A stretch of 64,000 nucleotides of DNA. Origin: a virus. Its lineage: Duplodnaviria > Caudoviricetes. The notes beneath the pieces are model-generated. The model ran no database searches, had not been told where the DNA came from, and saw nothing but the letters and a program-made list of their open reading frames with translations. The translations under genes were made by a program, and so were the position numbers. Location of the stretch: the IMG/VR virus record IMGVR_UViG_3300021959_007005, one strand, 5' to 3'. Of the stretch, positions 10,923 to 41,732 are shown in pieces. Every line of letters begins with the position of its first letter. The stretch's first letter is position 1.

Positions 10923-11988
10923 TTCTCATAAACCTTTTGTACTTAGGCAATGCTAGTTTGCCACTATATAGTACCTGTGACATTGGTGCCTGTGATTTAA
11001 ATTCTTCTATATCATTTACGCAATTAACATGCTCCGCTACTTTAAAGAAATTGTTGCTTTGTAGTACTACTAGTTTACCATCTGGAATCTTAGCATACCA
11101 TTCAGCAAAGTCGGAGATATGTTCGCAACTTGTATTAATAATAGTATCTGGCGTATCTGTTATGGGTCGGCTCATCCTGTTGTTAGCATTACTCCAAGAT
11201 TGCCACTTGTGAGTGTCATAGTCAATATCCATTATATCTTGTGTAATACTTTTGAAGCGCCATGTCTCCATAAACCATGGCTTGTTAAATGTTTCAGCAA
11301 TGTCTATACAACTAGGATCAATGTCAAAAGATCTAACTTTATCTACTTTAATGTCGCTTTCAAATAACATTGTAGCAAGTGTAGCGTACCATCCTGCACA
11401 TAAAAATACAGTTCCTAGTTCTACATTACACTTTTTAAGTTCGTCGATTAACCATAGCTTACTTTGTAATTGCCCTCTGCTAAAACAATCATTGTCAATA
11501 TCTGTACTGTTTATAAAAAAACTTTTAAACGCACTAGTGAATTGTGTGTCCACATAACTACTGAGTATAGGCCACAGTTTATACACGTTTTCATCAATGA
11601 TTAATTTACGTAAATTGTCATTGCCAAGTAATTTAAAGATACTGCGTAAATTTTTATTAACTATTGCTGTACGATATAAGTGTATATTCTCGTCTTGTTC
11701 AGAAAACAATCTAAACAAACTATATAAATTGTTTTCAATAACAGCTCTTCTTAGATCGTCACTGTGTCCACTTACATCCCATTCACTAGCTATTCTAAAC
11801 ATACTATGAAGATTTTCGTCAACTACTGCTTTTCTTAGTTCTTCGTTTTCGTCACACAATCTAAATATACTGCTTAAATCTCGGTCAATAAACGCACGTC
11901 TTAGATCAGCTATCGCAGACACTTCTGGATAAAGTAATTCGTAACGGTCTAGCAGTTCGTTTAAAGGTAATTCCAATGTATTAGTCAA
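10909..11988 (-). CDS. Class I SAM-dependent methyltransferase-like protein with N-terminal helical repeats
   Basis: VFLCAGWYATLA (motif I-like), SFDIDP (motif II), IINTSCEH, VLQSNN; paralog of 19021..19674. Confidence 0.65.
   Translation of the reverse strand: MTNTLELPLNELLDRYELLYPEVSAIADLRRAFIDRDLSSIFRLCDENEELRKAVVDENLHSMFRIASEWDVSGHSDDLRRAVIENNLYSLFRLFSEQDENIHLYRTAIVNKNLRSIFKLLGNDNLRKLIIDENVYKLWPILSSYVDTQFTSAFKSFFINSTDIDNDCFSRGQLQSKLWLIDELKKCNVELGTVFLCAGWYATLATMLFESDIKVDKVRSFDIDPSCIDIAETFNKPWFMETWRFKSITQDIMDIDYDTHKWQSWSNANNRMSRPITDTPDTIINTSCEHISDFAEWYAKIPDGKLVVLQSNNFFKVAEHVNCVNDIEEFKSQAPMSQVLYSGKLALPKYKRFMRIGYK
11566..11907 (-). repeat. Five tandem 17-aa repeats (consensus xLRxAxxxxNLxSxFRL)
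   Basis: DLRRAFIDRDLSSIFRL / ELRKAVVDENLHSMFRI / DLRRAVIENNLYSLFRL / LYRTAIVNKNLRSIFKL / NLRKLIIDENVYKLWPI. Confidence 0.85.
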
Positions 11989-12718
11989 AAGCGCCAGCCT
12001 CCAGTGGAGTGTCCTCCACTGCGTCAGAAAATGTTTCTCTTAGCCAAGAAAAGTCATTAATTTTATTTAAACGTTTTAAATCATTACGGTAATATTCACC
12101 AAAGTCAGAACCTTGATTTGCTCCTAAGATACAATAATCACCAAACGGGCGATCTTTGCCTCTTGAACACCAAGTCTCTAATCTGTATGCATTGTCAACA
12201 CTATCGCCATTATCGATGATACTGCTAGATAGTTTCGCACATTCTCTAAACGCACTGCGCCATGCATCGAATGGCGATGTATTAAATGCCGTTACGTTGC
12301 TAATCTGAAACTTTGGCACAAACGTACACCCTAAACTAGTAGTCATATCTACTGTCCAACGATTAGCTAGTAACATTGCCTTACGTGGGAATAATTTAGC
12401 ACCACCATAACCATATATTAGATCATTGACTGGGTTACGTGAGCGCCAACAATATATACACTCGTTTTGTGGTCTAAACCCATATTCCACTTCTTCTCTA
12501 TTAGGTGTAAAATTAAAATTAAATCCTTCTTCAATTACTGCATCCGCATCCATTACATAAAAGTTACTAGTTTCAGCAATCCTAGCTGCTTCTTTATGTG
12601 CTGCAAATATACCTTTGACTCCCTGAACACGCTTTGCGTGGGGAGCATAGTATTTTAAAATTTCAAAGTTTTCATCAGCTTGTGGTTCATTATAGCTAAT
12701 TTGTATTACGTCTAGCAA
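11981..12718 (-). CDS. Putative GT-A glycosyltransferase
   Basis: ISYNEP, AAHK, DxD motif (MDAD), AWRSAFRE; AGGAGA Shine-Dalgarno 8 nt before TTG; paralog of 40752..41732. Confidence 0.65.
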   Translation of the reverse strand: MLDVIQISYNEPQADENFEILKYYAPHAKRVQGVKGIFAAHKEAARIAETSNFYVMDADAVIEEGFNFNFTPNREEVEYGFRPQNECIYCWRSRNPVNDLIYGYGGAKLFPRKAMLLANRWTVDMTTSLGCTFVPKFQISNVTAFNTSPFDAWRSAFRECAKLSSSIIDNGDSVDNAYRLETWCSRGKDRPFGDYCILGANQGSDFGEYYRNDLKRLNKINDFSWLRETFSDAVEDTPLEAGAFD

Positions 12719-12770: not shown

Positions 12771-12893
12771 TTATTCGTAAATGAACGGATCTTTTTTACG
12801 TAACTCTTCTAATCTCTTTTTTAGCTTTTTCTTTTTTTGATATCTATCCCAAGGATACATAAAAAAGTTTCTAATTTTATTAAGCATATTCAT
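12771..12893 (-). CDS. Small Lys-rich protein (40 aa), below the ORF-track cutoff
   Basis: MNMLNKIRNFFMYPWDRYQKKKKLKKRLEELRKKDPFIYE*; ATGA overlap with the carbamoyltransferase stop; fills the gap exactly. Confidence 0.7.
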   Translation of the reverse strand: MNMLNKIRNFFMYPWDRYQKKKKLKKRLEELRKKDPFIYE

Positions 12894-13867
12894 TCACTCC
12901 ATATAGTTTTTTTAACTCGTATTTTTGATTTAGTATGCGCTAGTACACACCCTAGAGCACTACTGGCATCACCAGGACTTGGCATAATCCAAGTATTATC
13001 AAAATATTTATTAGATGATTCTCGACAAGCACCATTCATTGCACAGCCACCCATAAGAACAATATTTTTACTACAAGTTAGTTTTAGACTACACAAGATT
13101 AACGAGTCAACTATCTCTGCAAATATACGCTGTGTTGCAGCGGCAATATCTGTTAAGTCTTGTACTGTATTTAATTCAGGTCGCCAATCTCTGCATCCCC
13201 TGTGACAATTCCTTTTAAAAAGTAATCGTGGGTCATTTATATCTGGCATTTTCATAATAAATTCTGTTTTAATTAATTCATAAAATCTATCACTGTTACC
13301 AACTTGTGCCATTTCAGATATTACATGTTCTTGTATTTGTGGTTTTAGACCTATTCGTTGTGTCATTGCACTATACCAAATACCTATACTGTGTGGATAG
13401 TTCTGTGAAAACTTACGAGTTAGTTCTCCGTCATTACCTTCCCAAATAGTAATTGTATTCCATTCACCAATACTGTCCATTACTAATACAGCCGCATTAT
13501 CAAAAGAACTAGTGTAATATCCTGCGGCTGCATGGCTTAAATGATGACTAACTGTAGTGCTTTTAGGGGCATCTTTCCATAGACTACGCATATATCTTGT
13601 AGGTGATTCTTTACTGAGTAGTGTGTATTGTCCTGCGTATAACTGACGTGTTTTTTTAAGCCAGGGCTGTTCATAAAAATAAACTTGACTGGGTTTACCC
13701 CATTGTAATGCATGTTGAATTAATGGTAAACATAATGTTTTATCATTAACAACATGCGTATACTGTTGTGTGCGTCTAGCCCATTTAAACTGGTCACCAA
13801 CAAACACTGCCAGACTTGCATCGTGGCTCATTCCAGTCCAACCCCAAGTTACTTTATTTTTTGCCAA
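12890..13867 (-). CDS. Carbamoyltransferase (NodU/CmcH/TobZ family), N-terminal Kae1-like domain only
   Basis: SHDASLA, HHLSHAAAGY, VMDSIGE, GGCAMN, PSPGDASSALG; ends at 325 aa without the C-terminal domain. Confidence 0.85.
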   Translation of the reverse strand: MAKNKVTWGWTGMSHDASLAVFVGDQFKWARRTQQYTHVVNDKTLCLPLIQHALQWGKPSQVYFYEQPWLKKTRQLYAGQYTLLSKESPTRYMRSLWKDAPKSTTVSHHLSHAAAGYYTSSFDNAAVLVMDSIGEWNTITIWEGNDGELTRKFSQNYPHSIGIWYSAMTQRIGLKPQIQEHVISEMAQVGNSDRFYELIKTEFIMKMPDINDPRLLFKRNCHRGCRDWRPELNTVQDLTDIAAATQRIFAEIVDSLILCSLKLTCSKNIVLMGGCAMNGACRESSNKYFDNTWIMPSPGDASSALGCVLAHTKSKIRVKKTIWSE

Positions 13868-14022
13868 TGTAATTCACCTTGTTGTGGTAGTTGACCTCTA
13901 TATTCAACTCCAGTCTCTTCATCTATTAATCGCCATTTGGTTGGACATTTAGTAACTACTTTGAGTTCTACTGCTATGTCAATGGCAGGTACTACGGTAC
14001 CATCTTGTAGTGTTCTATTCAA
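13849..14022 (-). CDS. Small hypothetical protein (~57 aa; ORF track extends it to 14058)
   Basis: TTG at 14022 follows a purine-rich Shine-Dalgarno-like run and overlaps both neighbours; KCPTKWRLIDEETG core. Confidence 0.55.
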   Translation of the reverse strand: MNRTLQDGTVVPAIDIAVELKVVTKCPTKWRLIDEETGVEYRGQLPQQGELHWQKIK

Positions 14023-14467
14023 GTTCGCCCTTCTCTCTCCAATATTGGTACCTTTCAACTGCTTGCATTAGTGTTTCGTGGGTATTGTCAAACCATTCTG
14101 ATATATGATAATGTACTTGCTCAGGAGGTTCAAACAAATCATTTGTATCTTCGTATCTGCCTCGAGAAATAGTATCCATCCACACTGTAAAGTCTGGATT
14201 AAAGTTTTTCCTTGCTTCTTCTGTAGGACAAATAAAATCACACACTGCAATCTTACCTGCCATAACTACGCCATCTGCTAGATGCTTCATGCGAACAGAC
14301 TGTCTAATACGACCAGACAAACTAAAGTCCCAATCATCATAACTCTTTCTAATTTCGTCTGCATTAATATGCACACCACCTACTAATTCTGCAAATGGTT
14401 TTGCCAGTGTAGATTTACCACTTCCTGGCAATCCAAATATTAATATTTTCATTGGTGTTATTTCCAT
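14015..14467 (-). CDS. Adenylylsulfate-kinase (CysC)-like P-loop kinase
   Basis: ILIFGLPGSGKSTLA Walker A; NADEIR; DFSLSGRIRQ; CDFICP; FEPP. Confidence 0.75.
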   Translation of the reverse strand: MEITPMKILIFGLPGSGKSTLAKPFAELVGGVHINADEIRKSYDDWDFSLSGRIRQSVRMKHLADGVVMAGKIAVCDFICPTEEARKNFNPDFTVWMDTISRGRYEDTNDLFEPPEQVHYHISEWFDNTHETLMQAVERYQYWREKGELE

Positions 14468-14481
14468 TAAGTGCTACTATA

Positions 14482-14495
14482 ATAAATATATTTAT
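14482..14495. promoter_or_regulatory. Perfect 14-bp palindrome ATAAATATATTTAT carrying a late-promoter motif on each strand
   Basis: Plus-strand ATAAATA (14482-14488) is 5 nt before ATG 14494; the minus-strand copy points to the kinase gene. Confidence 0.65.
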
Positions 14496-14847
14496 GATAC
14501 TTTATATTGACATTGACGGCACTATCTGCACCGAGAAAAAAGTAATGGGAAAGAGTGCCAAAGATTATGAGGGAGCTAACCCTCACATGGACAGAATTGC
14601 AGTAATTAACAAACTGTATGACGAAGGACATGAGATACACTACTGGACTGCCAGAGGCACCACTAGCGGTATTGACTGGACAGATCTTACTACAGAACAA
14701 CTTAATGGTTGGGGCTGCAAATATCACGAACTTCATGTAGGCAGCAAGCCACATTTTGATGCATATATTTGCGACAAAAGTTGGAATAGTGAACATTGGT
14801 TTACTCAAAATTTGTATGAACAAATACCTCCGCCGGAAAGTGACTAA
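14494..14847 (+). CDS. HAD-family phosphatase (capsule-biosynthesis/EcbF-like)
   Basis: MILYIDIDGTIC (DxD motif I), WTARG (motif II), KP..D.YICDK (motifs III/IV); start moved to 14494. Confidence 0.8.
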   Translation: MILYIDIDGTICTEKKVMGKSAKDYEGANPHMDRIAVINKLYDEGHEIHYWTARGTTSGIDWTDLTTEQLNGWGCKYHELHVGSKPHFDAYICDKSWNSEHWFTQNLYEQIPPPESD

Positions 14848-15289
14848 TTAATTTTTCAAATATGTAAATGAACCCTAGCTCATGATAGCTTTTCATGAGC
14901 ATGGGTAATTTACTTTCACTGTATTCAATACAAATATCAGTTGAACTACTGATACGGCCATTGGCATTAAATGTGATACTCATAGTTTTTGCATTAGTCT
15001 TCTGTGCAATATCTATGTAGGCAAAACTGCTGGCAGTATTTCCACTAGCTGTTACAAACACAACAAGATCTCTACTATCTAAATTGGGCACTTGTAAGTC
15101 TTCACTGTGGTACGCTCGTAATCCTTGTTGACTTAGCCGCTGCATAAACATCTTACATGCTAGTCCTACTCTACCTTTGGCAACAAACACAATGTTTCTT
15201 GCACGTTGTAGTTCAACTAGTATTGCTTGCTGTTTATCAGGATCATACAATTTAGTATAATCACACCATGCTTTGTCAAAATCACTCAT
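14801..15289 (-). CDS. SIS-domain sugar-phosphate isomerase (6-phospho-3-hexuloisomerase-like)
   Basis: IVFVAKGRVGLACKMFMQRL, DLVVFVTASGNT, MSIT, SYHE; ATG 15289 lies just after the HNH stop. Confidence 0.75.
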   Translation of the reverse strand: MSDFDKAWCDYTKLYDPDKQQAILVELQRARNIVFVAKGRVGLACKMFMQRLSQQGLRAYHSEDLQVPNLDSRDLVVFVTASGNTASSFAYIDIAQKTNAKTMSITFNANGRISSSTDICIEYSESKLPMLMKSYHELGFIYIFEKLISHFPAEVFVHTNFE

Positions 15290-15290
15290 A

Positions 15291-15737
15291 TCAGTGATTC
15301 TGATTAGCTGGTGTAATGTTATCACCATGCTCAATTGTTTTAATATTATGACAATTACTACACAGTGTAACTAAGTTTCCTGGATCATTATTTGCATGAT
15401 TACCATCAATATGATCAACTGTTAAGGAAGCACGTAATAAACTGTTATACATTTTAGGATCACTTTCTTTATATTTCTTAACACGTGGCAACTCCGACGG
15501 ATCAAACTGACATTCACTACATTTACTTTCACGAAGCTGACTGTATGCTTTTGCTGGTGTTGCTAAACCACCAAATGCACTAAAGTTTCGCTGACAAGGA
15601 TCACAATAGTCTTTCTCACCTGGCCCTTTCCACAGTGTTAAATGACTGTTACAACCAGGTGTTTTACACTTGCCGCGCAGTGCCGACTTCATTTCAACAG
15701 TCGACTTTCTTACACGTTCCGTAGCTTCACGTATCAT
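15291..15737 (-). CDS. HNH endonuclease
   Basis: VDHIDGNHANNDPGNLVTLCSNCH plus upstream Cys pairs (CKTPGC, CDPC, CSEC). Confidence 0.88.
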   Translation of the reverse strand: MIREATERVRKSTVEMKSALRGKCKTPGCNSHLTLWKGPGEKDYCDPCQRNFSAFGGLATPAKAYSQLRESKCSECQFDPSELPRVKKYKESDPKMYNSLLRASLTVDHIDGNHANNDPGNLVTLCSNCHNIKTIEHGDNITPANQNH

Positions 15738-16930
15738 TATTTTACATCCTCTTCAGTAAAGTTAAATGTCTCACTAAACACTGGCAGTTTTTTACTAAAT
15801 CCAGCTACCTTTAATGCTGTTGTAATCCAATAAGGTCCGACAATTGTTTGGTTACAACGATAAGTCTTACCCTCCATCATACGCCCTGCTGCCTTTTCAA
15901 TATTACAGTGATTCTGATATGCTTCTTGTACCTTGCGTCCTTTAATGGTTCCACTAGGTGCCCATGTGTTCTGTGTAATCTTACTCAGTATTTCAGACAT
16001 TTCATCAATATATGTATTTGTAATAGTGATTCCCTGATTCATACATTGCCGAAAAAATACACTAAGGTTATCAATCTCCATTGCTACAAACGGTTTGTTA
16101 GTATTGCTAACTGAATGATAATACATTACACGCTCAAACACTTCCACTGGAAAATTACGGTTCATAACTTCTGTCATACGTGACCAAGCACCGGCACGTT
16201 TCTCATCACCAAACTTTTCGCTAGTAGCAAAGTATGAGTATTGCTCAAAGTATTCTTGTAGTTTAACACATCGTATATTCCAAAAGTCTGTTAACCCATC
16301 ATGACGGAACCCTGCAACATACTGCTTATACAAATCAATTGCTTCAAGTTTTTTACTTGTACGTCCACTATTAAATTCTACAAACCGTCTGCGAATTGCT
16401 GCACGATCATCACCTGGATATTGATCCACTGGAACCATTGCTTGTGCGGGATCAATACCAAATCCATATACTGCAATAACCCAAAGAGCAATTCCAGTAT
16501 GTTGCCCATCCCATGCTACATGCCTATCAATCTTACCATCTGCTCGCTTTGTGTCTAAATAAGTGCGTATCCGATTAATAAAATCTGGATTAAATTCTGC
16601 AACAATATTAATTAAGTTTTCACGATCTGGCCAACGCTGCATAGTGTCATTAATATCAATTTCACTAGCTGGTACATATTGTATGCTGCCCATGCCTACT
16701 ACATCTTTAACCATGTCATGATATGATTCATACCCCATAGCTCCTACCATACCTTCAGCAAGCGCACGGAACATCATTTCTAAATCACTATCTTTAGCAT
16801 ACATTTCCTGTAGTCGTTCGCCAATAGTTACAAAATGATCTTCATCTGTATGATATGAACTATTAATAATGTCTGCATATGGACTTGTTTTAATAGTATT
16901 AGCTTTATTGGTTGTCATTAGTGTCATCAT
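15737..16930 (-). CDS. ParB/Srx-superfamily-like protein with QR and DGQH motifs
   Basis: IDINDTMQRWPD..FNPD..AWDGQHT; TAATG coupling to the HNH gene. Confidence 0.6.
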   Translation of the reverse strand: MMTLMTTNKANTIKTSPYADIINSSYHTDEDHFVTIGERLQEMYAKDSDLEMMFRALAEGMVGAMGYESYHDMVKDVVGMGSIQYVPASEIDINDTMQRWPDRENLINIVAEFNPDFINRIRTYLDTKRADGKIDRHVAWDGQHTGIALWVIAVYGFGIDPAQAMVPVDQYPGDDRAAIRRRFVEFNSGRTSKKLEAIDLYKQYVAGFRHDGLTDFWNIRCVKLQEYFEQYSYFATSEKFGDEKRAGAWSRMTEVMNRNFPVEVFERVMYYHSVSNTNKPFVAMEIDNLSVFFRQCMNQGITITNTYIDEMSEILSKITQNTWAPSGTIKGRKVQEAYQNHCNIEKAAGRMMEGKTYRCNQTIVGPYWITTALKVAGFSKKLPVFSETFNFTEEDVK

Positions 16931-16985
16931 TTATATTCTCTTCTGCTCCAATTAAAAAATTGTTGTTTAAAGTTTAGATGTCTTC

Positions 16986-17014
16986 GTTGTACAGTATTAT
17001 AACACATGAGTCAA
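16986..17014 (-). promoter_or_regulatory. Putative sigma70-type promoter for the DGQH-HNH pair
   Basis: TTGACT (17014-17009), 17 nt spacer, TACAAC; an extra TATAAT lies at 17001-16996 inside the spacer. Confidence 0.5.
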
Positions 17015-17029
17015 TATAAAAAGGCAAGA

Positions 17030-18430
17030 TTACGTACTATATTTGTGCAAATGCTGCATTGACCACAAAAATAATTGATGATTTAACTGAGCATCAACAT
17101 TTAATGGTGCCATTGACAACCATATGGCACCTACACCCAGTTCAATTTTTTGCCAGTTATTTTTGTAAATATCTGAATCTCTGAATTTATTTAAACGTAT
17201 TAAGTCTTTTTCAGTAACAGTAACTCCATCAGTTACCATATGATTTAAGTTAATATTGTGCAGCCATAAGCTATGATAAAATTTACAGATATCATAAAAT
17301 ATGTCATTGACTACGCCAGCACGATGGTCTATATAATTTATACTATCTGGTGTTACAACGATATTGTCTAATACAAGATCCCCATGACATGGTCCTAGTA
17401 TCCCATTATTAAGTATATCCCAATTAATTGATTCAACTAGACGAGTACAATCGACATTAACACCATTAATGTCTAATACGCCGCCATACTTCTCGTCTTG
17501 ATCGCACATCATTTCAAAACGTTGCCAAGTCTTATCTTGCCACAATTCTTTATTATTAACAACTACATTGTTGTTTAAACAATATGTCCATAAATTTTCT
17601 AAGTTGTTGTAGATTCTATCATAATTTCCATTATACGGATTAACATCTCCATTAACAAATTCATAACTTAATGACGTTGGTGTACATATTACTGGTGATG
17701 GATGTGGAAATGTAGTATTTGTTACATTAATATTAGTTTCCGTACTAAACAGTTTAATTATTCTGTCATTTACTTTATATACTTCTTGATGTGACTTATC
17801 AAGAACTAAAAATTCATCCTCAAAATGAGTAAACGCTCCGCTACTGCTTTCTCTGTTTCCTACATCATACCAAGTATCTAATGCATGCTCATTTAAGTTG
17901 TTGAGCTCTTTTAATATCAATAAATCATTACGACTATGATTGCTGTCTTGGAGTATGCGATAATAATCTTTACTGTCTTTTATAAAACTTATGCCGCTAT
18001 ACACTGAGCAGTTATCTGAATCATAATATTCACTATTTTCTGGATAACATACGAACCAAGTATTTTCATCAACCAGAGGAACCAATGTACTCCAATTGTC
18101 ACATGCGTTATAGTAAAATGGCTTATCAAATACATACTCAGGTATTTGTTTAAAGCTAGCAATTTGGCCACTGTTCCAGTTTGCTATTTCGATAAATTCT
18201 ATATTTTTATATCCAGCATGTGTCAAGTATTCACGTACTCGATCACCTTCATACCCAAGAGTAATATATATTGTATCTATGTCAGTATAGCTAGCAATAA
18301 TATGATCTATTACAGCATATGGTCCAACACGATTTAATGTTTTATGAAATTTGGTATAGCCAGCACTCCTAGTACCAGGCCCACTACATGGAATAAGTAA
18401 GTTTTTGCATGTTTTGTGTATAGTCTTCAT
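17030..18430 (-). CDS. Fusion of a nucleotidyltransferase and an APH/choline-kinase-like domain
   Basis: N-terminal LIPCSGPGTR..KTL (GxGTR NTP-transferase signature), NACD; C-terminal CHGDLVLDNI, YIDHR, YDICK. Confidence 0.8.
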   Translation of the reverse strand: MKTIHKTCKNLLIPCSGPGTRSAGYTKFHKTLNRVGPYAVIDHIIASYTDIDTIYITLGYEGDRVREYLTHAGYKNIEFIEIANWNSGQIASFKQIPEYVFDKPFYYNACDNWSTLVPLVDENTWFVCYPENSEYYDSDNCSVYSGISFIKDSKDYYRILQDSNHSRNDLLILKELNNLNEHALDTWYDVGNRESSSGAFTHFEDEFLVLDKSHQEVYKVNDRIIKLFSTETNINVTNTTFPHPSPVICTPTSLSYEFVNGDVNPYNGNYDRIYNNLENLWTYCLNNNVVVNNKELWQDKTWQRFEMMCDQDEKYGGVLDINGVNVDCTRLVESINWDILNNGILGPCHGDLVLDNIVVTPDSINYIDHRAGVVNDIFYDICKFYHSLWLHNINLNHMVTDGVTVTEKDLIRLNKFRDSDIYKNNWQKIELGVGAIWLSMAPLNVDAQLNHQLFLWSMQHLHKYST

Positions 18431-19013
18431 TGAATATTATTTTACTTCCTGCTATTAACCGAATGTTGTCTTGATTTTTAAAACGCTCATATGTTTCATA
18501 TGTTACACCACCGTCTATTGTAACATGTCTTTGCGTATCTGTCAATTTATCCAAGTCAAAGAAGCTATTTTGTACTTTAATTCCTGGGTTATACGCCATA
18601 AGCAAAAAAGAGTCTACATCCAATCTATCACATATATTATCCATTTTTTGTACTGTGTGGTATGGCTTAAATGCTAATTTAAGTCTTGGGTCTTGACTTA
18701 AGAAGTCAACACAATGTTGTTCACTGTGAAAACTTTCATAGTGTGCAAATATAACATCTGCGCTGCTATTCAGTATTGCATCCCATGCAGGATTATTACA
18801 TGTTATCATGGCATGCACATCTATGTGTTCTGCAAAATGTTTTCTAGCTTCATCTATAGCTTCAGGGTGACATCCTAATCTAGGAACAAAACTGCCATCC
18901 ATAAAGTCCATGTGTAATCCTACTGATCCTTTTGCAAAACTTCTAGACAGATCGTTATGGGTGTTTCTAATATTAATCCAGCTATCACATATATAACTTA
19001 AACTTAATTGCAT
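18384..19013 (-). CDS. rpe: Ribulose-phosphate 3-epimerase family protein
   Basis: HMDFMDGSFVP, DVHAM, HYE, LMAYNPG, IDGGV, IAGS: the metal-binding H/D/H/D set is present. Confidence 0.85.
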   Translation of the reverse strand: MQLSLSYICDSWINIRNTHNDLSRSFAKGSVGLHMDFMDGSFVPRLGCHPEAIDEARKHFAEHIDVHAMITCNNPAWDAILNSSADVIFAHYESFHSEQHCVDFLSQDPRLKLAFKPYHTVQKMDNICDRLDVDSFLLMAYNPGIKVQNSFFDLDKLTDTQRHVTIDGGVTYETYERFKNQDNIRLIAGSKIIFNEDYTQNMQKLTYSM

Positions 19014-19020
19014 ATTTTGC

Positions 19021-19674
19021 CTACACTTTCTTTTTTCCTATTAACATATAACGATCATACTTTAATGTGGGTAATGTTTTACACAAATAAGTATTAATAT
19101 TACTTATGTGCATAAATTCCTTTAAATCTGTACAGCATCTAATATGCTCATCCAAGTCAATATAATTATTACTTTGCAATACAATAGTAGCATGATCTGG
19201 TTGATTACTTAACCATTGATCGTATTGTTCTTGTGTAATATGTTCGCAGCTAGTATTTACAACAACATCAGCAGTCTTATCTACAAATGTTGTCATATCT
19301 GCGGTTATTGCACTAAATTTTCCTTGATCCAAATAAAGTGTATTTACTGTGTTTGCAATTTCTTCACACACAGGATCTATATCTACACTTTTAATTGTGT
19401 TTATATTAATATTAGAGTTAAATAATATACTTGCAAGTACTCCATTCCACCCACCGTATATAACAATATCTAACGGTCTGACAGGCACAAACCCTACTAG
19501 GTTCTCAGCTAACCATATTTTACTATTAACTTGGCCCTTCCAAAAACTTTCAAGTGTGCGATATCGGTCATCACTATCGCGAATCGCATCCATCCAAAAT
19601 AATACATCTTGTATGTTAATTTTCATTGGCATTCCGTATAGCTCAATAGGAAGTAACGGTGATTTGGAATTCAT
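19021..19674 (-). CDS. Class I SAM-dependent methyltransferase-like protein
   Basis: VIYGGWNGVLA, SVDIDP, VNTSCEH, VLQSNN; start moved to ATG 19674; paralog of 10909..11988. Confidence 0.65.
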   Translation of the reverse strand: MNSKSPLLPIELYGMPMKINIQDVLFWMDAIRDSDDRYRTLESFWKGQVNSKIWLAENLVGFVPVRPLDIVIYGGWNGVLASILFNSNININTIKSVDIDPVCEEIANTVNTLYLDQGKFSAITADMTTFVDKTADVVVNTSCEHITQEQYDQWLSNQPDHATIVLQSNNYIDLDEHIRCCTDLKEFMHISNINTYLCKTLPTLKYDRYMLIGKKKV

Positions 19675-40751: not shown

Positions 40752-41732
40752 CTATTCAATACTGTCGTTGACTTGTTCTTCACGTACCATTGCACCCAAT
40801 CTATGTGGATTCTTGTATACGGTCTTAAAGAATCTACTGCCAACCCTTCCCATATCTGCAATTTCTAAGTCTAATACTGAACGAAGGTTTTCGCCTATCT
40901 CTATAGTTTTTGCTGTTACCTTGTCAATATCCCATGATACACCAGTGTTTACACACAATTCATTTCCGCCCTCAAACTCTGGGAATAACTCAGTTGTAAA
41001 GTAATTACTAAGCCAATCAAAGTCACGCACATTTTTCCAATCCCATGCATTACGTTGTATATTAGTCATTTGGCATCCAAGTCGTGCACCATACATTGCC
41101 CAAATTCCATTAGTAACGTCTTCGCCAACACTCATCCATACCATCAGTCTCTTATAATTTTCACGATATATGTGTTTAAGTTTTGCAGGATCAACTACAT
41201 TGCCATCTTCTAGTCCCATCTTAACACCTTCACGAAACCCTGCACGCCAAGCCTGTAGTGGGCTACCATTGTTCATTACATCACAGTAAATATTATTCAT
41301 TTGTACATAGTTAATATTCCAACAAAAGTCAACCTGTGCTCTTTTATCACTTGCAGGGGCGGCTTCATGTGTACGCATACGGTTAACAACATCAACGGGC
41401 CAACATTTAATACCGCCGTTACCATATACCAAACCATTTACTGTATTTTTACCTGCCCAACTAATGACGTCATTGCTTTTGATTCGGTCCATATCAACTT
41501 CTACATTGAAAAAATCTTCTTTTACTACATTATCAGCATCAATAGTAATAAATCGTTCAGTGTCACTCATAGCAGCGGCGGCTTTATGTGCGGCGTCACT
41601 TCCCCATACTCCATGACTTCGTTTAGCCCAAGGCGCCTTTTCAAGTAAGTCTGAATAATTTTCATCAGCATTAGGCTCGTCATAGCTAATAAAAATTATA
41701 TCAAATTCAGTAATTGGTACTAAATTTGTCAT
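40752..41732 (-). CDS. Putative GT-A glycosyltransferase, paralog of 11981..12718
   Basis: ISYDEP, AAHK, IDAD (DxD), YGNGGIK, AWRAGFRE. Confidence 0.65.
   Translation of the reverse strand: MTNLVPITEFDIIFISYDEPNADENYSDLLEKAPWAKRSHGVWGSDAAHKAAAAMSDTERFITIDADNVVKEDFFNVEVDMDRIKSNDVISWAGKNTVNGLVYGNGGIKCWPVDVVNRMRTHEAAPASDKRAQVDFCWNINYVQMNNIYCDVMNNGSPLQAWRAGFREGVKMGLEDGNVVDPAKLKHIYRENYKRLMVWMSVGEDVTNGIWAMYGARLGCQMTNIQRNAWDWKNVRDFDWLSNYFTTELFPEFEGGNELCVNTGVSWDIDKVTAKTIEIGENLRSVLDLEIADMGRVGSRFFKTVYKNPHRLGAMVREEQVNDSIE

Follow-up and report, generated by a model that had tools for sequence, protein, structure and literature searches.

On sequence comparison, the closest characterized system to the gene block described here is the phage pathway to uridine diphosphate (UDP)-D-arabinofuranose, rather than the synthesis of nucleoside diphosphate (NDP)-heptose. 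The block lies at positions 14494–19013 of a 64,000-nucleotide (nt) stretch of viral DNA (IMG/VR record IMGVR_UViG_3300021959_007005), the whole of which is called the window below, and encodes an RPE-family epimerase, a nucleotidyltransferase-kinase fusion, a SIS isomerase and a HAD phosphatase. For HY126, a published report (PMC13326640) describes AfhE as a kinase acting on arabinose-5-phosphate and a UDP-arabinose pyrophosphorylase; citing He et al. 2026, it has arabinofuranose-5-phosphate phosphorylated at C1, the 5-phosphate removed by AfhF and UDP-arabinose formed, and it assigns AfhE and AfhF to DNA arabinosylation.

Two further systems resemble parts of the block. Genetic work shows that fructose branches depend on BcbE (with BcbF and BcbG in Pasteurella multocida B) and on KfoE (with KfoI and KfoH in Escherichia coli K4) (PMC13552107, PMC7925653); for these capsule fructosylation genes, the literature searched holds genetic evidence and no identified donor. 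The synthesis of NDP-heptose by GmhA, HldE/HddA, GmhB and HddC follows a similar logic of isomerase, anomeric kinase, phosphatase and nucleotidyltransferase, and a first-pass annotation of the window had taken it as an analogy.

The best overall explanation of the block, to which we give a probability of roughly 0.6, is that it supplies a phage glycosyltransferase (GT) with a rare sugar, activated by a nucleotide, late in infection. An NDP-sugar pathway architecture, in which isomerase/epimerase, kinase, phosphatase and nucleotidyltransferase act along one route as the first-pass annotation had proposed, is likely and is supported by homology and co-occurrence; as its model, the phage UDP-arabinofuranose pathway fits better than NDP-heptose synthesis. 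Being soluble, the four enzymes would offer a route, open to direct assay, to a nucleotide sugar that has probably not been described before, one that links solved phage arabinofuranose chemistry to the genes of capsule fructosylation.

Results

All four open reading frames (ORFs) of the block are present and intact:

14494–14847, plus strand: small HAD phosphatase, 117 amino acids (aa); homologous to AfhF (RB69 gp51), with weak homology to BcbF/KfoI
14801–15289, minus strand: SIS isomerase of the PHI (HxlB) family, 162 aa; identified by family profile and motifs
17030–18430, minus strand: fusion of a nucleotidyltransferase (residues ~1–205) and an APH/choline-kinase-like domain (~215–466); homologue of AfhE and remote homologue of BcbE/KfoE
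18384–19013, minus strand: epimerase of the RPE family, 209 aa, showing AlsE-like features; PF00834 match, loop and Cys features

The earlier observation of four enzymes within 4.5 kb is thus confirmed, with two amendments: the HAD gene lies on the plus strand, where it converges on the SIS gene and shares 47 nt with its 3' end, and 1.6 kb of the block is an unrelated insertion. The SIS protein probably starts at the ATG at 15289. The window differs from the stored genome record by eight single bases, none of them within 14000–19100.

The 466-aa fusion escaped identification in sequence searches of Pfam and PDB; its domains were recognized by folding and wider profiles. In the AlphaFold model (pLDDT 91.5), the N-terminal domain has an RmlA/LicC/MurU-type fold (RmlA, Z 18.8; LicC, Z 18.7), with HddC also among the fold matches, and the best kinase match of the second domain is choline kinase (Z 12.2). 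The GxGxR motif and two aspartates of the nucleotidyltransferase domain are invariant, as are the Lys, HGD, Asn and metal-binding Asp of the kinase domain (K226, HGD349–351, N356 and D368); motifs and fold agree that the kinase is APH-like, as first annotated. The fusion profile matched RB69 gp52 (E 7e-19) and gp53 (E 6e-10). A wider family of ~520-aa fusions was found, with at least 281 bacterial or archaeal and at least 424 viral matches; strict patterns for the close phage clade gave no match in GTDB genomes, whereas the wider family did match. The family profile also aligned with a BcbE-type protein over 449 columns (hhalign 99.3%, E 5e-20), the gene of which has a BcbF gene (TIGR01689) on one side and a BcbG-like gene on the other, and the fusion is homologous to a gene of a K4-type E. 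coli locus that we take, from gene order and sizes, to be in the KfoE position.

Some relatives of the fusion stand in settings of their own. In one K4-type locus the gene in the kfoE position is interrupted by IS1 (L189:10270–12614), BcbF/E/G-type triads occur in the E. coli O78 and O20/O137 O-antigen clusters (L192:10001–12728 and L193:7854–10566), and a homologue on a Planktothrix plasmid (L185:7977–9497) lies near amidinotransferase, sulfotransferase and dioxygenase genes, possibly in a natural-product cluster.

The epimerase matches PF00834 at E 1.6e-20, and its metal-binding and catalytic residues H34, D36, H67 and D167 are invariant, so that the His/Asp/His/Asp set is kept. It scores 79 bits against TIGR01163 (rpe; cut-off 212.6) and 51 bits against the AlsE family (cut-off 271). 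The beta8 phosphate loop is one residue longer than that of Rpe, which is the AlsE length, in all 76 of the 76 phage homologues; the GFGG loop of Rpe is replaced, and the N-terminal motif carries a Cys, as in E. coli AlsE. In a small tree the protein did not group with E. coli AlsE, and Foldseek did not separate Rpe from AlsE. A role in the ribulose monophosphate (RuMP) pathway was rejected, there being no hexulose-6-phosphate synthase: against Rpe the barrel enzyme gives E 4e-24, against HxlA no better than E 0.035.

The SIS protein belongs, by profile and motifs, to the PHI (HxlB) family and to neither the KpsF/GutQ nor the GmhA type, in agreement with its first description as PHI-like: its best family is PHI/HxlB (E 7.8e-18), GmhA follows at E 0.016–0.06 and KpsF gave no match. 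It retains the PHI motifs GRxG, SG, M-x-S-x-x-E and the C-terminal HxNxE, scores 65 bits against the HxlB equivalog (cut-off 160), and its profile did not match RB69 gp55 (E 0.31). The HAD protein has a DxDGT motif and only weak library matches, including none to TIGR01689 (BcbF) at E 0.1; its own profile reached BcbF at E 4e-4 and RB69 gp51 at E 1.7e-15.

Compared with the AfhE/AfhF pathway, represented in RB69 by gp55, gp52:53 and gp51, the block shares a T4-like phage background, an N-terminal nucleotidyltransferase fused to an APH-like kinase, a homologous small HAD protein and a SIS isomerase alongside. It differs in that its SIS protein is of the PHI family whereas that of RB69 is of the KpsF/GutQ type, in its extra epimerase (the RB69 cluster has no rpe) and in its position in a late glycan island, the RB69 set being in the replication region; moreover, RB69 gp48, the deoxycytidine monophosphate (dCMP) hydroxylase, has no match in the 198-kb, ~55% complete record or in 98 related loci. 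With the BcbE and KfoE sets the block has in common the remote full-length homology of the fusion and a weak homology of the HAD protein; unlike the fusion here and AfhE, in which GxGxR is intact, the BcbE-type N-terminal domain has a degenerate motif without it, and BcbE systems have a separate BcbG, no feeder enzymes and a separate clade in the tree. No BcbG homologue was found among the ORFs of the record or in the conserved block.

NDP-heptose synthesis shares the logic of the steps, and HddC is among the fold matches of the fusion. The SIS protein here is not GmhA, the kinase is APH-like rather than PfkB or GHMP, and the HAD protein is of the BcbF/AfhF type. Outside the window, the genome encodes an HldE-like PfkB kinase-cytidylyltransferase and an HldD-like epimerase of its own (L287:63–2107), with no GmhA among the ORFs of the record, although no search was aimed at GmhA. 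E. coli AlsE and PHI/HxlB resemble the feeder pair in catalytic residues, AlsE-length loop, Cys and PHI motifs, but the pair scores below both family cut-offs and stands in a biosynthetic context; the conserved block has no allose kinase, transporter or hexulose-phosphate synthase. At pathway level, the block is well explained as AfhE/AfhF chemistry in a variant form that has a new feeder; by their defining features, it belongs to none of the heptose, BcbE-triad and RB69 pathways.

The genes of the block also occur together in other genomes, a point that the first-pass annotation had made a test of its proposal. Across the 98 viral and metagenomic loci related to the block, the genes as a rule follow the order rpe-fusion-SIS-HAD, and upstream neighbours vary; the order recurs down to ~48% identity, so the arrangement is not due to chance. 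Forty distinct fusions could be evaluated: 32 have all three partners, seven have none and one lacks only the HAD gene. The joint absence requires at least two changes on the tree, and in this shared presence or absence the three partners act like a single unit that can be detached as a whole. In most cases the fusion remains ahead of genes for a carbamoyltransferase, a DxD GT-like protein and a methyltransferase-like protein. The fusion-only phage records that were searched for a feeder elsewhere are 13–18% complete, and that search had no positive control. In one subclade (L015, L016, L066, L068, L069, L082 and L198), the HAD gene is co-oriented and a SnoaL-like gene lies between rpe and the fusion.

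The wider family was examined in 80 bacterial and archaeal loci, thereby extending the comparison to bacterial polysaccharide loci; the first-pass annotation had proposed a comparison with bacterial capsule loci. RPE-family and PHI-family genes adjoin the fusion in six of them, mostly in evident polysaccharide clusters, and five of the six have a KdsC-like phosphatase; one bacterial epimerase partner passes the rpe cut-off. The RPE and PHI pair was found in two distant viral loci as well. The epimerase and the PHI-like gene are always paired, and the fusion tree shows the pair in four to five distinct positions. Two phage rows of that tree took their labels, by assumption, from near relatives, and RB69 and BcbE are placed in it through long branches; we therefore claim no origin from it.

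Most of the other prokaryotic loci carry a different feeder beside the same fusion family (~25–30% identity). A GatZ-like C4-epimerase of 330–390 aa is present in 60 of the 80, accompanied by a cupin in 59, compared with a cupin in none of the six epimerase and PHI loci; a GatZ/KbaZ-like epimerase and a cupin also stand beside the fusion in 64 of 68 distant viral loci. This module of C4-epimerase, cupin, nucleotidyltransferase-kinase and HAD protein, spread over bacteria, cyanophage-like phages and other large viruses, was never found with the RPE and PHI pair (counts 0/6/55/4; Fisher p 2.5e-6, uncorrected for kinship). The GatZ-like proteins keep the catalytic residues D87/H88/E171/H257 of GatZ, the activity of which is described in PMC11907403. 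Read most simply, this mutual exclusion means that in either module a ketose-phosphate epimerase and an isomerase supply the kinase, and two interchangeable feeder modules are thereby exposed within one fusion family. Divergent examples of the GatZ/KbaZ-like epimerase with a cupin (L206:4648–5826, L122:10074–11072) point to a widespread biosynthetic use of the C4-epimerase family.

The virus record that holds the window is linear, encodes a gp23-type major capsid protein and has near-identical counterparts across many seawater and estuary runs; its source is a widespread marine T4-like jumbo phage. Downstream of the virion structural genes, the block forms part of an island made up of radical S-adenosylmethionine (SAM), sugar and GT-like genes, together with the following features:

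11981–12718, minus strand: DxD GT-A-like protein, candidate user of the donor; conserved in 58 related loci
14482–14495, both strands: back-to-back T4-type late-promoter motifs (ATAAATA), with promoter function presumed from the T4 consensus
15291–16930, minus strand: passenger insertion outside the pathway, encoding a 397-aa ParB/GmrSD-like protein and a 148-aa HNH nuclease

The two insertion genes, which lie between the fusion and the SIS gene and occur in four of the 98 related loci, are passengers unrelated to the pathway. Two relatives (L024 and L078) have a different insert, of ~200 aa, near the same site. The motif ATAAATA is depleted in the window (13 observed against 46 expected) and stands mostly at gene starts. 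One copy (plus strand, 14482–14488) is 5 nt ahead of the HAD ATG, the other (minus strand, 14489–14495) faces a P-loop kinase gene, and TAAATA precedes all 19 of the 19 distinct inverted HAD copies in relatives. We read the copy upstream of the HAD gene as a probable T4-type late promoter on the strength of the T4 consensus; a sigma-70 promoter scan stayed at chance level. Metatranscriptome contigs span the block, but they show neither transcription nor strand and two of the runs resemble one data set; they were not used as evidence. The carbamoyltransferase gene in the window (12890–13867, minus strand) encodes only the N-terminal domain, 325 aa against ~500 aa in relatives, and a full-length copy is present elsewhere in the record.

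Discussion

The order of steps is most likely that of AfhE/AfhF because the enzymes are homologous to that characterized pair. The epimerase and the SIS isomerase would supply a sugar terminal-phosphate, the APH-like domain would phosphorylate its anomeric hydroxyl, the HAD protein would then strip the terminal phosphate, and the nucleotidyltransferase domain would finally add a nucleoside monophosphate; the nucleotide used, like each reaction, is predicted from these relationships. Ribulose-5-phosphate (Ru5P) and xylulose-5-phosphate (Xu5P) are both housekeeping metabolites, so a canonical Rpe would be dispensable here, and this dispensability together with the AlsE-like features favours the conversion of fructose-6-phosphate to D-allulose-6-phosphate. 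The SIS protein could then isomerize D-allulose-6-phosphate to D-altrose- or D-allose-6-phosphate, leading to NDP-altrose or NDP-allose. We propose this product tentatively, at less than even odds. D-Altrofuranose would share the ring stereochemistry of the AfhE substrate.

Several observations weigh against this proposal. Whole-protein scores place Rpe slightly above AlsE for the epimerase, and the extra residue of the beta8 loop depends on the alignment, being missing from HMMER alignments; Chan et al. (2008) reportedly tied hexose or pentose specificity to the length of this loop. The SIS protein keeps all the PHI motifs, and its bacterial counterparts exceed the HxlB cut-off. True PHI chemistry, from 2-keto to 3-keto, would undo the C3 epimerization, so the SIS protein would have to be an aldose-ketose isomerase. 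In addition, the fusion is ~16% identical to gp52:53 over the aligned columns, and seven relatives hold it without an adjoining feeder or phosphatase.

The first-pass annotation had favoured an NDP-ketose or NDP-alditol. An alditol finds no support, as the conserved block has no reductase. A ketose is not established, since AfhE, the nearest homologue with known biochemistry, activates an aldose phosphate (PMC13326640), although the remote BcbE/KfoE proteins are needed for fructose branches. Somewhat doubtful, yet the foremost competitor of NDP-altrose/allose, is that the same activation yields NDP-tagatofuranose or NDP-psicofuranose, by a shuttle or by direct activation of allulose-6-phosphate. 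The shuttle, replacing GatZ, might take fructose-6-phosphate to 3-hexulose-6-phosphate, epimerize it at C4 and return it to tagatose-6-phosphate, or convert sedoheptulose-7-phosphate to manno-heptulose-7-phosphate. The retained PHI motifs fit a 3-ketose shuttle to tagatose-6-phosphate, which is the GatZ product; the mutual exclusion with a GatZ-like epimerase that keeps its catalytic residues and the full-length homology of the fusion to BcbE-type and KfoE-position proteins point the same way. However, the distribution of the cupin indicates that a pair replaces a pair rather than GatZ alone, the fusion motif is intact as in AfhE whereas the BcbE-type motif is degenerate beside a separate BcbG, and a hexulose shuttle predicts an Rpe-length loop where an AlsE-length loop is observed.

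It is unlikely that the block instead follows the RB69 pathway or makes an epimer of its product, with Rpe balancing Ru5P and Xu5P, the SIS protein forming arabinose-5-phosphate or lyxose-5-phosphate, and NDP-D-arabinofuranose or NDP-D-lyxofuranose as the outcome. In favour of this scheme, the kinase, nucleotidyltransferase and phosphatase are directly homologous to those of RB69, PHI chemistry on pentose phosphates would be that of an arabinose-5-phosphate isomerase, and a bacterial partner does pass the rpe cut-off. Nevertheless, the SIS profile fails to match gp55, the epimerase is AlsE-like, and it is always present beside the PHI-like gene even though its pentose substrates are housekeeping metabolites and RB69 manages without rpe.

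LicC-LicA fusions have the same domain order as the phage fusion. LicC practically ties with RmlA among the fold matches, choline kinase is the best kinase match and the fusion persists alone in seven relatives; these facts would suit a LicC/LicA-type enzyme making a cytidine diphosphate (CDP)-alcohol, choline-like or polyol, for which the other three genes supply a free polyol or ketose. We find this very improbable, given the constant linkage of the fusion to sugar-phosphate epimerases and isomerases and the lack of a reductase in the block. Homologues of AfhE give the same LicC and choline-kinase matches and yet act on a sugar phosphate (PMC13326640). Hardly any weight attaches to the idea that rpe and the SIS gene landed here by chance as auxiliary genes enhancing pentose-phosphate or RuMP metabolism: the labels rpe and hxlB and a distant rpiB in the same genome suggest it, but the scores lie far under the equivalog cut-offs, the promoter context is late, the two genes are absent jointly with the HAD gene, and their linkage to the fusion is strict across viruses and bacteria that are not related. 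The first-pass annotation had likewise doubted a pentose-phosphate role. Labels of rpe and hxlB in marine phages therefore need not mean auxiliary genes of carbon metabolism.

We speculate, with slightly more confidence than for any single product but still short of an even chance, that the fusion family serves generally to activate rare sugars and can exchange one feeder for another. The AlsE-like and PHI-like feeder would lead to NDP-D-altrose/allose or an NDP-ketohexose by an undescribed route, placed on virions by abundant marine jumbo phages, and the GatZ and cupin feeder would be a second such route. The literature searched, outside which most subscription papers lie, holds no description of an epimerase and PHI feeder or of an NDP-ketofuranose donor.

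As for the acceptor, a virion or surface glycan is favoured because of the late-promoter motifs, the position of the block and the bacterial polysaccharide contexts. The DxD GT-A-like protein at 11981–12718, downstream of the block and a paralogue of the product of a tail-adjacent gene (40752–41732), is a candidate user of the donor. Whatever the product, the donor might serve DNA hypermodification as in RB69, AfhE and AfhF acting in DNA arabinosylation (PMC13326640). Genes for a P-loop kinase, for a carbamoyltransferase and for a methyltransferase-like protein are conserved nearby, and a small ORF (13855–14025, minus strand) matches the C-terminal 56 aa of RB69 gp52 (41%, E 2e-7). We consider a DNA acceptor rather improbable: a gp48 match is lacking in the ~55% complete record and the 98 loci, ThyX and folE/queE-like (deazaguanine-type) genes are carried instead, late-promoter motifs and GT/radical-SAM genes surround the block downstream of the virion structural genes, and homologous modules lie within bacterial surface-polysaccharide loci. 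The folE, queE-like and Vut_1 genes of L286 (G000 C1:172621–188321), accompanied by two genes (148 and 503 aa) without a family match, suggest 7-deazaguanine metabolism.

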